The translations under genes were made by a program, and so were the position numbers. From assembly GCF_024223415.1 (NCBI RefSeq), contig NZ_CP100500.1: DNA of 64,000 bases; one strand, given 5' to 3'. The notes below the pieces were generated by a model. The model was not told where the DNA came from. It saw nothing but the letters and a program-made list of their open reading frames with translations, and made no database searches. This stretch comes from Escherichia coli (GTDB lineage Bacteria > Pseudomonadota > Gammaproteobacteria > Enterobacterales > Enterobacteriaceae). Numbering within the stretch: position 1 is the first letter of the stretch; each line of letters opens with the position of its first letter. Below are positions 2,707-10,321 of the stretch, piece by piece.

Positions 2707-5700
2707 ATGGGTAAAGGCAGCAGTAAGGGGCATACCCCGCGCGAAGCGAAGGACAACCTGAAGTCCACGCAGTTGCTGAGTGTGATCGATGTCATCAGCG
2801 AAGGGCCGATACAAGGACCGGTGGATGGATTAAAAAGCGTGCTGCTGAACGGTACGCCGGTGCTGGACAGTGAGGGGAATACCAATATATCCGGCGTCAC
2901 GGTGGTATTCCGGGCCGGTGAGCAGGAGCAGACGCCGCCGGAGGGATTTGAATCCTCCGGCTCCGAGACGGTGCTGGGTACGGAAGTGAAGTACGACACG
3001 CCGATTACCCGGACCATCACGTCGGCAAACATCGACCGTCTGCGCCTGACCTTCGGTGTGCAGGCACTGGTGGAAACCACCTCAAAGGGGGACCGGAATC
3101 CGTCGGAAGTCCGCCTGCTGGTTCAGATACAGCGTAACGGTCGCTGGTTAACGGAAAAAGACATCACCATTAAGGGAAAAACCACTTCACAGTATCTGGC
3201 TTCGGTGGTGGTGGATAACCTGCCGCCGCGCCCGTTCAGTATCCGGATGCGCAGGATGACACCGGACAGCACCACAGACCAGCTGCAGAACAAAACGCTC
3301 TGGTCGTCATACACCGAAATCATCGATGTGAAACAGTGCTACCCGAACACGGCACTGGTCGGTGTGCAGGTGGATTCGGAGGAGTTCGGCAGCCAGCAGG
3401 TGAGCCGTAATTATCATTTTCGCGGGCGCATTCTGCAGGTGCCGTCGAACTATAACCCGCAGACGCGGCAATACAGCGGTATCTGGGACGGAACGTTTAA
3501 ACCGGCATACAGCGATAACCCGGCCTGGTGTCTGTGGGATATGCTGACCCACCCGCGCTACGGCATGGGGAAACGTGTTGGCGCAGCGGATGTGGACAAA
3601 TGGGCGCTGTATGTCATCGGCCAGTACTGCGACCAGTCGGTGCCGGACGGCTCTGGTGGCACGGAGCCGCGCATCACCTGTAATGCCTGGCTGACCAGGC
3701 AGCGTAAGGCGTGGGATGTGCTCAGTGATTTCTGCTCGGCGATGCGCTGTATGCCGGTATGGAACGGGCAGACGCTGACGTTCGTGCAGGACCGACCGTC
3801 GGATAAGGTGTGGACCTATAACCGCAGTAATGTGGTGATGCCGGATGATGGCGCGCCGTTCCGCTACAGCTTCAGCGCCCTGAAGGACCGCCATAATGCC
3901 GTTGAGGTGAACTGGAGTGACCCGGATAACGGCCAGGAGACGGCGACAGAGCTTGTGGAGGACACGCAGGCCATTGCCCGTTACGGTCGTAACGTCACGA
4001 AGATGGATGCCTTTGGCTGTACCAGCCGGGGGCAGGCACACCGCGCCGGGCTGTGGCTGATTAAAACAGAACTGCTGGAGACGCAGACCGTGGATTTCAG
4101 CGTGGGTGCTGAAGGGCTTCGCCATGTACCGGGCGATGTCATTGAAATCTGTGATGATGACTATGCCGGTATCAGCACCGGTGGTCGTGTGCTGGCGGTG
4201 AACAGCCAGACCCGGACGCTGACGCTCGACCGTGAAATCACGCTGCCATCCTCCGGTACCACGCTGATAAGTCTGGTTGACGGAAGTGGCAATCCGGTCA
4301 GCGTGGAGGTTCAGTCCGTCACCGACGGCGTGAAGGTAAAAGTGAGCCGGGTTCCTGACGGCGTTGCCGAGTACAGCGTGTGGGGGCTGAAGCTGCCGAC
4401 GCTGCGCCAGCGCCTGTTCCGCTGCGTGAGTATCCGTGAGAACGACGACGGCACGTATGCCATCACTGCCGTGCAGCATGTACCGGAAAAAGAGGCCATC
4501 GTGGATAACGGGGCGCACTTTGACGGCGACCAGAGCGGAACGGTGAATGGTGTCACGCCGCCAGCGGTGCAGCACCTGACCGCAGAAGTCACCGCAGACA
4601 GCGGGGAATATCAGGTGCTGGCGCGCTGGGACACGCCGAAGGTGGTGAAGGGCGTGAGCTTCCTGCTTCGCCTGACCGTGGCCGCGGATGACGGCAGTGA
4701 GCGGCTGGTCAGCACGGCCCGGACGACGGAAACCACATACCGCTTCAGGCAGCTGGCGCCGGGGAACTACAGGCTGACAGTCCGGGCAGTAAATTCCCGG
4801 GGGCAGCAGGGAGACCCGGCGTCGGTATCGTTCCGGATTGCCGCACCGGCAGCGCCGTCGCGGATTGAGCTGACGCCGGGCTATTTTCAGATAACCGCCA
4901 CGCCGCATCTTGCCGTTTATGATCCGACGGTACAGTTTGAGTTCTGGTTTTCGGAAAAGCGGATTACCGATATCAGGCAGGTTGAAACCACAGCCCGTTA
5001 TCTTGGTACCGGAAGTCAGTGGCTTGTCTCCGGCCAGAATATTAAACCTGGCCATGATTATTACTTTTATATCCGCAGTGTTAACACTGTCGGTAAATCG
5101 GCATTCGTGGAGGCAGTCGGTCGGGCGAGTAATGATCCTGCCGGTTACCTTAATTTTTTCAGGGGGGCGATAAATAAAACGCATCTGGGACGGGAGATCA
5201 ATGAACGCATTGATGCCTCTGCACTGCGCACTGAAGTTGAGCAACTGGAGAATGAGATTAACCGCGAAATGACGCAGCTGGAGAAAGATGTGAGGCAGCG
5301 TGCGGAGCGTGATATCGCCGAGGTGACGAAAAAAATCACGGCGTCTGAAAACAGCATAACGGAACTGGTGGCGAAAAAGAGCGGTGAACAGTCGCTGGCC
5401 ATTGCGAAAGTCGACAGGAAAGTTGACAGCGTGAGCAGTGAAATCCGGCAGACAGTGAGCAGGAGCACGGAGGAGAACAGCCGACAGATAGCGCAGGTCA
5501 GGCAGTATGTTGATGATAAAAGTGCGCAAATAAGTACTGTTGTGGCGAAAAAGAGCGCTGAACAGTCAATGGCCATTGCGGAAGTTGACAGAAAAGTTGA
5601 CAGGATGGGAAGCGAAATCCGGCAGACAGTAAGCAGGAGCACGGAGGAGAACAGCCGACAGATAGCGCAGATCAGACAGTATGTTGATGATAAGGGAAGT

Positions 5701-6216
5701 CAGATCAAACAGAGCACGGATAAAAAACTGGGATCCTGGAATGCCAGCATTGAGCAGATACAGAAAGTTCAGGAGGACACGCGCCGGAACCTGAACAGCA
5801 TGTGGGCTGTGAAGCTGCAGCAGACACGGGATGGACGTCTCTATATTGCAGGTATTGGTGCCGGAATCGAAAATACGTCTGACGGAATTCAGAGTCAGAT
5901 CCTGATGCAGGCAGATCGTATTGCGATGATTAACCCGGAAAATGGCAATACAACACCTTTGTTTGTGGCTCAGGGTGATCAGCTGTTCATGAATGATGTT
6001 TTCATGAAAAAACTGACCGTGGATTTTGCCAGAGTGACGGGAGATATCCGGTCAGATAATTTTCATTCCGGTAGTCCGGGGTGGCGTTTATCAAGAAACG
6101 GCAGCCTTGAAATTAACTCAGGAAGGCCCGGCGCAGGCCGCCTGTTTTTCAATGGCGAGCGAATCGACGTATATGACGATAACAATGTGTTAAGAGTACG
6201 ACTGGGGAGACTGTAA
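2707..6216 (+). CDS. Host specificity / central tail fiber protein J, with divergent C-terminal part
   Basis: 1169 aa; SD GAGG before ATG 2707; conserved J blocks incl. [11 protein letters not shown] and [14 protein letters not shown]; long coiled-coil repeat region and short C-terminus that differ from lambda J as I remember it. Confidence 0.9.
5368..5715 (+). repeat. Tandem ~174-bp (58 aa) near-identical repeat inside the J coiled-coil region
   Basis: Peptide [51 protein letters not shown] repeated with few substitutions; visible at nucleotide level. Confidence 0.8.
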
Positions 6217-7477: not shown

Positions 7478-9292
7478 ATGGCGGCTGTAAAAATTTCAGG
7501 CGTGCTGAGGGACGGAACCGGAAAACCGGTACCGGGATGCATTATTGAGCTGAAAGCGAAGAGAACCAGCGAGACAGTCATCGCCACGACAGTGGCTTAT
7601 GGCATGCCGGAAGAGACGGGGAGTTACAGTATGGATGTGGAGCCAGGAATATACAGGGTGACACTCAATACAGAAGGTTACCGTCCTTCGTATGTGGGAG
7701 ATATCGTGGTCAGGGAGGATTCTTCACCGGGAACACTGAATAAATTTCTGATGGAGATGGAAGATGCTCCTTATTATCCGAAGGCGTTGTCAGAGCTGGA
7801 GGCTGTGGTGCAGTCCATACTGCACAGAGCAGAGTCCGCGGCATCTGAGGCGGAGGAAGCCCGGAAACGAGCAGCATCTGCCCGGGGACCACGAGGAGAG
7901 AAAGGGGATACCGGCGCTCGTGGTGAAAGAGGCATTACCGGGCCACAGGGGCCAAAAGGTGAAACAGGAGCACGTGGCCCGGCAGGACCACAGGGACCAA
8001 AAGGTGAAACAGGTGAACGCGGTCCGGCAGGTCCACAGGGACTAAAGGGCGATACAGGTGAACGCGGCCCGGCAGGTCCACAGGGACCAAAGGGTGAAAC
8101 AGGTGCACGCGGCCCGGCAGGTCCACAGGGAGCAAAGGGCGAAACAGGTGAACGCGGCCCGGCAGGTCCACAGGGAGCAAAGGGCGAAACAGGTGCACGT
8201 GGTCCGGAAGGCCCTCAGGGTCTGAAGGGAGAAAAGGGTGAGCGAGGAGAAAAAGGCCCTAAGGGGGATAAAGGAGATCCGGGAGGTCCACAGGGACCAA
8301 AGGGGGATACAGGTGAACGCGGCCCGGCAGGTCCACAGGGATCAAAGGGCGATACAGGTGAACGTGGCCCGGCAGGTCCTCAGGGACCAAAGGGGGATAC
8401 AGGTGAACGTGGCCCGGAAGGTCCACAGGGAGCAAAGGGTGAAACAGGTGAACGCGGCCCGGCAGGACCACAGGGACCAAAAGGTGAAACAGGTGAACGC
8501 GGTCCGACAGGTCCACAGGGAGCAAAAGGTGAAACAGGAGCACGCGGTCCGGCAGGTCCTCAGGGACCAAGAGGAGAGTCAGCCCGTGGACAACTGCTGA
8601 ATGGTGATCTGAACCGACTGGGACGAGTGACCGATCAGGGTGATTATTATCAGCCATCAGACAGTGGGGCTACACGAGAAAATAATTATCCGATTCAGAG
8701 AGCGGGTTATCTTCAGGTAAGAGTTGGTGCATGGGGATATTGCCAGCATGAATATACAACCTGGAACCCACCACGAAAGTTCGTAAGAACTGTTACTGGT
8801 AATTTTACCGGTAATGGCCCCTGGTCTGAATGGAAAGAGCTGGGAGCCCAGGGGGAGCGTGGTCCACAGGGACCAAAAGGTGAAACAGGTGCACGCGGTC
8901 CGGCAGGTCCACAGGGACTAAAGGGCGAAACAGGTGCACGTGGCCTGGCAGGTCCTCGGGGGCCAAGAGGGTATACAGGTGAACGCGGCCCGGCAGGTCC
9001 ACAGGGGCCAAGAGGAGAAGCGGGGCGGCCAGCGAGCGTCGGAAGTGTTTATTCCGTGGGGTCTTATGTTCTGGGGATCATAGAACGAAATCATGAGATA
9101 ACAAATACCCGTCAAATACCCGGGTATCGTATCAGACAGGCCGTTATTGTGTCGTCGTCATCGGATAAACTTACAGATATCCGCTTTTTATTTGGCAATC
9201 CTATGCTTGGTACATGGATGTTATGCACAACTAACATGACGGTGAATAATATCAGTGGGACGATTTGGGGCCTGTTTCAGAGAATACTGTGA
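7478..9292 (+). CDS. Side tail fiber protein (Stf-like) with collagen-like Gly-X-Y repeats
   Basis: N-terminus [29 protein letters not shown] close to the lambda Stf N-terminus; about 240 aa of GPxGxxGxxG repeats plus a second shorter block. Confidence 0.85.
7853..8580 (+). repeat. Collagen-like Gly-X-Y triplet repeat array within stf (second block about 8828-9010)
   Basis: Repeated 9-nt and 27-nt units encoding G-P-Q-G-x-K-G-E-T; also produces spurious antisense ORFs. Confidence 0.85.
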
Positions 9293-9307: not shown

Positions 9308-9883
9308 ATGAAGGTCGATAAAATCACGTCACCAGTGTGGGCTGACAGGGGTCATACGACCATAAACTGTATAGTGAAGTTTTCAGACGCGGAAACAGAA
9401 TGTGTATTTACAGCAAGTGCGGATGATCCTGAGTCTTACGGTCGTGAAATATTTGAAGCCTGCATAAGAGGTGATGCAGGGCCGGTAGGTGAGTACCGGG
9501 CAAATGATGATATGGCTGTGGAAGAAGCACGCAGGATGAAAAACGCGGAGATAAATGCCTGGCGTGATGCGATGGAGGCGTCAGGGTATGTTTTTGAGCA
9601 CAGAGGACGGAAATGGGATTATGGAAAGGAAACCATGACACGTCTTGGAATGTCGGCATCAGCGGCCAGAGGCGGTGTGTTGCCGGAAGGATTTTTCTGG
9701 ACGGACGCAGAGAATAATGATGTACCGATGACGGCAGATGAACTGATATCCCTGAGTGATGCTGCTGGTAAAGCGATGTTCAGGAAAGGCCTTGAAATAC
9801 ATATAAGGCAAAGGGAGATGAAAAAGGCAATAGCAGAACTGAGTGACAGTGAAACCATTCTGGCGTACAGGGTTGGATGGTGA
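9308..9883 (+). CDS. Tail fiber assembly protein (Tfa-like chaperone)
   Basis: 191 aa directly after stf, with the size and position typical of lambdoid tfa; assignment is positional plus general family resemblance. Confidence 0.6.
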   Translation: MKVDKITSPVWADRGHTTINCIVKFSDAETECVFTASADDPESYGREIFEACIRGDAGPVGEYRANDDMAVEEARRMKNAEINAWRDAMEASGYVFEHRGRKWDYGKETMTRLGMSASAARGGVLPEGFFWTDAENNDVPMTADELISLSDAAGKAMFRKGLEIHIRQREMKKAIAELSDSETILAYRVGW

Positions 9884-9896
9884 AACTGATAAAAAA

Positions 9897-9925
9897 ACCC
9901 CTCTGAAAATTCTGTCAGAGGGGTG
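9897..9925. terminator. Stem-loop after tfa (A-tract upstream, weak U-tract downstream; may act bidirectionally)
   Basis: cccctctga-aaattc-tgtcagagggg inverted repeat. Confidence 0.4.
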
Positions 9926-10321
9926 TAGTCAATAAGGGAATAATATTCAACATGAAGATGTCTTCTGGGAATGTTTACATAGCAAATGCTTTCACTCCGG
10001 TAATTAATTTCTGTGATTAACTGCTTTCGATCAATAAAGGAATTGCAAAAAAGGTGAACTGATTCACAATTGAGTCTGTGATGAATGTAGACTGATGTAG
10101 GAAACGGTTATTCTGACAGCTATATCTGAATGCTCTGCTGACATATGGGGACAAGAACGCTCATATTGTTTTATCGGGGTGCATTTATCCTATAATTCCA
10201 TGTTAACTGTATTGATTGTTAAAATCAATGCAGTGGTGACTCTGAAAGGTATCCTGGAAAAGAATCTCGCCTGCTTATTCAGGGGGGGTTACAGTTTAAT
10301 CTTCTTAACAGGATATACCAT

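Follow-up and report, generated by a model that had tools for sequence, protein, structure and literature searches.

A 29-bp palindrome and a predicted structured 5′ leader in the AT-rich DNA upstream of a prophage-borne adhesin gene of Escherichia coli

How is a prophage-borne adhesin gene of E. coli controlled, and does a 19-bp dyad in the AT-rich DNA ahead of it take part in that control? The locus was analyzed within a stretch of 64,000 nucleotides, referred to here as the window. The original prediction had described about 400 bp of AT-rich non-coding DNA and taken it for a regulated promoter, silenced by H-NS and/or bound at the dyad by a dimeric regulator, possibly a neighboring protein of the LuxR type. 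The description is borne out: the non-coding gap spans 9884-10321 (438 bp), between the stop codon of the gene for tail-fibre assembly (9883) and the adhesin ATG (10322), with a GC content of 0.37 versus 0.526 for the window. The dyad, ATTGATTgttaaAATCAAT / ATTGATTGTTAAAATCAAT, lies exactly at 10211-10229, ending 93 bp and centred 102 bp ahead of the ATG; a search tolerating two mismatches gave no second match in the window.

The start of the window is the tail region of a lambdoid prophage, and the adhesin cassette follows the tail genes. Features of this region are:

2707-6216: 1169-aa open reading frame, at the position annotated as tail tip protein J in related records
7478-9292: tail fibre with collagen repeats
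9308-9883: DUF4376 tail-fibre assembly gene, the last gene before the non-coding gap
9897-9924, minus strand: terminator hairpin with a 10-bp stem and an 8-nt loop, directly 3′ of the tail-fibre assembly gene
9926-10050, plus strand: distal leader module, common to all cassettes of this kind in alignments
10322-11731, plus strand: trimeric autotransporter adhesin, 469 aa, with signal peptide and YadA anchor
11752-11776, plus strand: GC-rich intercistronic hairpin, CCCGGGGG agt CCCCCGGG, without a T-run
11792-12247, plus strand: 151-aa protein with a helix-turn-helix of the sigma-70 region 4 type, an orphan

Past the gap, the adhesin gene (10322-11731) and the gene for the 151-aa protein (11792-12247) are followed by a DinI-like gene on the opposite strand. 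Beyond the prophage lie chromosomal genes with RpiR-type regulator, HAD hydrolase, deaminase, lytic transglycosylase and FGAR amidotransferase domains. With tail genes on one flank and chromosomal genes on the other, the leader is part of a “moron”, a cassette of cargo genes at the right-hand end of the prophage. The cassette, consisting of the leader, an Eib-like adhesin and the 151-aa helix-turn-helix protein, is mobile cargo carried by a lambdoid prophage of E. coli at its tail-fibre end, and its 438 bp of non-coding DNA are an ordinary, well-structured, built-in control region. Phage morons such as bor and lom of lambda are cargo genes that lie in a late region and bring their own promoter and terminator. 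Like these, the cassette is autonomous, lies after the tail genes, is lower in GC than its surroundings, has its own leader and moves between prophages and islands; unlike bor and lom, it comprises two genes, one of them a private orphan regulator, and has an unusually long leader (438 bp in the window, whose leader is of type A, and ∼780 bp in cassettes of type B).

The hairpin at 9897-9924 is kept in all related loci. Its T-run is on the minus strand only, the plus strand having an A-run (9891-9896), so it would halt leftward transcription into the tail genes and hardly affect rightward late transcription; late read-through into the adhesin gene at prophage induction is therefore plausible. 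Of 5426 complete E. coli genomes, 370 contain a match to bases 9884-10050, the first 167 of the gap, and in every case inspected this segment lies upstream of a YadA-like gene; 26 nt (9958-9983) are absent from some alleles of the distal module. Chromosomal islands with the same leader start and adhesin retain the last bases of the tail-fibre assembly gene. Since the terminator hairpin closes the upstream gene and the leader accompanies the adhesin into non-prophage sites, the adhesin's own promoter would have to lie in the gap. In this respect, and on anatomical grounds, the original prediction of a promoter is supported; that of the dyad as the regulator's site is not, for reasons given below.

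That the downstream gene encodes an adhesin was confirmed by a YadA_anchor match (E = 1e-16) and a match to 2lme. As with the prophage-borne eib genes of E. coli, it is a YadA-anchored trimeric autotransporter beside lambdoid tail-fibre genes. Its stalk and anchor are ∼98-100% identical to entries named “immunoglobulin-binding protein”; in particular, the C-terminal 255 aa are ∼98-100% identical to the common type B proteins, some of which carry that name in their source records, and 97-100% identical to proteins so named. By sequence, stalk and anchor thus appear Eib-like. The N-terminal ∼210 aa differ from eib in forming, with the proximal leader, a separate orphan module seen in E. coli only. 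This head (10322-10960) has no Pfam domain, the adhesin has no match to the solved EibD passenger, and no relative of the head outside E. coli was found among 5.8 billion proteins. Three head alleles occur, differing mostly at residues 35-90, which look like a hypervariable surface patch. Expression of Eib is condition-dependent, being favored by static growth, 37°C and low oxygen (PMC4352079), and is boosted by the unlinked IbrAB genes according to Sandt et al. 2002, as cited in PMC7649339. No map of a native eib promoter was found in the accessible Eib literature, where papers used foreign promoters or gave no promoter data.

Low GC content is not confined to the leader: it extends ∼640 bp into the adhesin gene (0.39 for 10322-10960, compared with 0.51 for the remainder of the gene). 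The proximal leader (10100-10330) and the head occur in only 6 of the 5426 complete genomes, all E. coli, in three alleles. Neither the proximal leader nor the type A head was found outside E. coli when the 5.8 billion proteins, the complete genomes of E. coli, the phage records and a single metagenome scan were searched; a search of viral contigs gave one locus, of type B. Proximal leader and head are both rare, whereas the C-terminal 255 aa of the adhesin are common, which shows that leader and head are exchanged together. They form one swapped low-GC module of ∼900 bp, from ∼10050-10115 to ∼10960, so that expression control and surface specificity are swapped in a single step. The leader is as AT-rich as typical H-NS targets. 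On general grounds, H-NS probably silences the whole module, which is foreign DNA rich in AT. Note that a 3-nt insertion, GTA, in the region of 10088-10090 (within GAATGTAGACTG) was present in the window only and in none of the other leader copies examined.

Candidate control elements in the leader are:

10053-10068: CRP-like site, GGTGA-N6-TCACA, with 9 of the 10 core bases of TGTGA-N6-TCACA
10162-10167: CATATT of the candidate promoter CTGACA-18-CATATT, predicted start ∼10174
10191-10196, plus strand: consensus −10 hexamer TATAAT, preceded by C, with a −35 element TTGTTT (10166-10171) 19 bp away; predicted start ∼10203
10206-10234, plus strand: 29-bp palindrome with 12-nt arms and the loop GTTAA; the 19-bp dyad is its core
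10217-10225, plus strand: extended −10 element TGtTAAAAT inside the palindrome, predicted start ∼10232
10249-10316, plus strand: predicted second helix, 10249-10256 pairing with 10309-10316, which buries the ribosome-binding site AGGA (10310-10313)
10282-10288, plus strand: run of seven G, 34-40 nt before the start codon
10290-10295: candidate −10 element TACAGT of TCGCCT-17-TACAGT, the top-scoring promoter candidate

The dyad is not notable by itself. Perfect inverted repeats with 7-nt arms are common: the window has 57 and its shuffles 26, and one is present in 18% of shuffled leaders. The palindrome around it is rarer. It reads ACTGTATTGATT gttaa AATCAATGCAGT, with arms at 10206-10217 and 10223-10234 and one T:G position; repeats as strong occur at 8 places in the window, where shuffles give 1.2, and of 3000 shuffled leaders only 17 (0.6%) contain one. 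Folded as RNA it reaches −14.8 kcal/mol (z = −6.9). In each of the three alleles, RNA from the plus strand forms the more stable fold and RNA from the minus strand the weaker one (−16.1, −11.9 and −16.1 versus −8.2, −7.6 and −12.8 kcal/mol), and the T:G imperfection of the window palindrome becomes a G·U pair in plus-strand RNA only. On these predictions, the adhesin mRNA probably begins with a hairpin formed by the palindrome. It is not an intrinsic terminator, given the AT-rich stem and no T-run on either strand; a terminator scan lists the hairpin at 9897-9924 and not the palindrome. A scan of 9700-12800 on both strands against Rfam (E≤1) gave no family match.

Comparison with six more copies of the type A leader showed 95-100% identity among alleles. 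Allele A3 has a perfect 12+12 palindrome, and in allele A2 three adjacent uncompensated changes remove the outer three stem pairs. The 19-bp core is invariant. Its invariance carries little weight because the whole leader is 95-100% identical, and it also means that covariation evidence for the palindrome is absent.

Two promoter scans were ambiguous, no single promoter being picked out. TATAAT is invariant in all alleles and ranks only seventh in the leader by position-weight scan, owing to its poor −35 element 19 bp away. Folding of 10200-10340 predicts the palindrome as the first helix, with its base at 10202, so that a start near 10203 leaves hardly any unpaired 5′ bases. A hairpin within ∼0-4 nt of the predicted 5′ end fits the TATAAT start and none of the other candidate promoters. 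E. coli mRNAs such as that of ompA are stabilized by a stem-loop at the 5′ terminus of the leader, which shields them from 5′-end-dependent decay. The present leader resembles that of ompA in having a strong hairpin predicted 0-4 nt from the 5′ end that is predicted for the mRNA of an outer-membrane protein, and differs from it in showing neither a sequence relation nor an Rfam family and in having a 5′ end that is only predicted.

The second helix concerns translation. The pairing probability of the ribosome-binding site is at least 0.99 from 20 to 45°C, within the top 1-2% of upstream shuffles. Because pairing is unchanged over this range, and with no Rfam thermometer match, the helix was rejected as an RNA thermometer and is better described as a stable mask. 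The type B leader has no comparable signal.

We tentatively favor, at somewhat less than even probability, a mechanism that combines the TATAAT promoter, a 5′-terminal stem-loop and a masked ribosome-binding site, with H-NS silencing likely. The 438 bp would be the self-contained control region of a moron operon, encoding the adhesin and then the small helix-turn-helix protein, that was inserted 3′ of the tail-fibre assembly gene in an E. coli lambdoid prophage. Three layers could be distinguished: the terminator hairpin and the distal module common to such cassettes, ending in the CRP-like site; the promoter-proximal part, which lies within the low-GC module swapped with the adhesin head; and the structured 5′ leader. 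The adhesin mRNA would start at ∼10203, 7 nt past TATAAT, and the palindrome would be transcribed as a stem-loop at its extreme 5′ end, protecting it against 5′-end-dependent decay. The second helix, in which 10249-10256 pairs with the ribosome-binding site, would restrict translation, and H-NS would additionally silence the AT-rich module. Counting against this mechanism are the ambiguous promoter scans, the loss of outer pairs in allele A2, the core without covariation and the remaining fold, since the leader minus the palindrome is not unusually stable (z = −0.9).

The dyad might act instead as DNA, as an operator for a dimeric protein. Such a protein would sit either over the promoter with TGtTAAAAT (start ∼10232, giving a 90-nt leader), an extended −10 element that lies within the dyad, or as a roadblock at +3 to +31 of the TATAAT promoter. 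The invariant core is consistent with an operator, as are its flanks, where 5 of the ∼12 variable leader sites are located. So is the otherwise unrelated type B leader, which has a perfect 7-5-7 dyad (ATATTATacacaATAATAT) at −120 to −102 from its ATG, the type A dyad being at −111 to −93. The type B dyad overlaps the best type B candidate promoter, TTGAGG-17-TAATAT, near the start of a block conserved between the two type B alleles compared; it is weak as a hairpin, with AU pairs only, and together with its position on this promoter this favors a role at the DNA level. However, 4 of the 7 half-site positions are different in the two dyads, which rules out a single protein for both, the 12-nt arms of the type A palindrome are long for an operator, and 7-nt-arm dyads are common by chance. 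Known motifs fit half-sites only. Both half-sites of an FNR site (TTGAT-N4-ATCAA) are perfect (10212-10216 and 10224-10228) but 7 bp apart where FNR needs 4, and the dyad is not among the matches of an FNR scan at ≤1 mismatch. The outer arms CTGT...(G/A)CAG, within ACTGTAT/ATACAGT, resemble a LexA box (CTGT-N8-ACAG) and are ∼20 bp apart, again a wrong spacing. On these grounds the dimeric-regulator site of the original prediction is not supported, and we regard an operator at the dyad as less likely than the favored mechanism but as a serious competitor to it. Judged by its sequence, a better candidate for a dimeric-regulator site is the CRP-like site at 10053-10068, the sole match with ≤1 mismatch in the 64-kb window; at the aligned place, type B has TGTGA-N6-TCACG.

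We give the same weight as to the operator to a reading in which the palindrome has no function at all and is a quasi-palindrome in AT-rich foreign DNA, hitchhiking with the swapped head module. With three close alleles (95-100% identical), its conservation would be uninformative in this case, the outer stem is degraded in allele A2, and changes cluster at the flanks of the palindrome, as template-switch mutation at quasi-palindromes predicts. Against this, a repeat of such strength is found in so few shuffled leaders, several other equally strong repeats in the window rank among its most stable hairpins, and the palindrome follows directly on a consensus −10 hexamer.

A more elaborate reading, which we hold to be improbable, makes the type A leader a two-part riboregulator peculiar to this rare adhesin variant. 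The 5′ stem-loop would set the lifetime of the mRNA, the second helix would shut the ribosome-binding site until a trans-acting factor opens it (for example, a small RNA, the orphan sigma-region-4-like protein or ribosomes that come in from an upstream frame overlapping the adhesin start), and slippage in the run of seven G would serve as an on/off switch.

A still less probable proposal, autoregulation, is that the dyad is bound by the adjacent 151-aa protein. Its gene is co-oriented and lies 60 bp downstream of the adhesin gene; it follows a YadA-like gene in every locus inspected and is found only beside such adhesin genes. However, the protein is not of the LuxR type that had been proposed: there was no GerE match at E≤10, while the Pfam model Sigma70_r4_2 scored 30.9 bits against a cut-off of 25.7. 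NCBIfam matches were all to sigma-70/ECF models and far below their cut-offs. In 182 of 183 E. coli genomes, moreover, the regulator is >99% identical, and it accompanies cassettes that lack the dyad of the window, nothing within 2 mismatches of it being present in the type B cassettes inspected, so the dyad is unlikely to be its site. Comparison of the proximal leaders of types A and B gave neither an excess of shared k-mers over chance nor a motif for a common regulator. Should the 151-aa protein act on the leader, its likelier target would be the distal module that the cassettes share (9926-10068). Among 1.84 billion representative proteins only its own fragments were found as homologues, a search of phage records gave no match, and a single-sequence AlphaFold model had a pLDDT of 37. 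A sigma-region-4-like orphan with no characterized relative behind these adhesin genes is a more interesting question than the dyad.

Least credible of all is control through the upstream frame and/or the G7 tract, with slippage shifting the frame or the spacing of TCGCCT-17-TACAGT: the frame is open in all three alleles, the tract lies within the spacer of this promoter candidate, and one metagenome copy has G8 instead of G7, but ATG 10200 has no ribosome-binding site, most substitutions between alleles in this frame are non-synonymous, the comparable frame of type B has lost its ATG in L004, the second type B allele examined, and encodes an unrelated peptide, and all other copies read have G7. 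The frame has 41 codons, from ATG 10200 to TGA 10323-10325, overlapping the adhesin ATG as ATGA, or 48 codons in the window allele when counted from GTG 10179. Lacking a ribosome-binding site, with unrelated type A and type B peptides and a type B start codon that is not conserved, the upstream frames were rejected as real small genes. G7 is present in the window and in all other copies read except one metagenome contig (L016, G8 at 3755-3762), where G8 would bring the frame in frame with the adhesin ATG and could be due to slippage or assembly error. The UspA1 trimeric autotransporter of Moraxella is said to undergo phase variation through a poly-G tract; the window adhesin likewise has a G run ∼35 nt upstream of its start codon, unlike UspA1 a run of only 7. 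Note that TACAGT also occurs 38-43 nt before the type B start codon.

The practical value of these results is modest. They provide a map of a candidate promoter, CRP-like site, 5′ hairpin and masked ribosome-binding site for a rare Eib-like adhesin variant that occurs in poultry and human E. coli, and they leave current understanding unchallenged.

Several further structures were observed around the cassette and in its relatives. The intercistronic hairpin at 11752-11776, between the adhesin stop and the regulator start, can be extended by 3 pairs and is the second most stable 33-nt window in the 64 kb; it may be a processing or 3′-end stabilizing element that uncouples adhesin from regulator levels. 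The DinI-like gene (12631-12879, minus strand) has two LexA boxes (CTGT-N8-ACAG) upstream, at 12895-12910 and 12923-12938, and a hairpin at ∼12537-12563 is its likely terminator. In the type B leader (L003, 3240-3360) two hairpins were seen, CCGCACG...CGTGCGG followed by TTTACG and CACGTGG...CCACGTG followed by AAATTTTT, and a patch at ∼3520-3640 is highly divergent between L003 and L004, the two alleles compared. These hairpins and the divergent patch possibly represent a small RNA or an attenuator.
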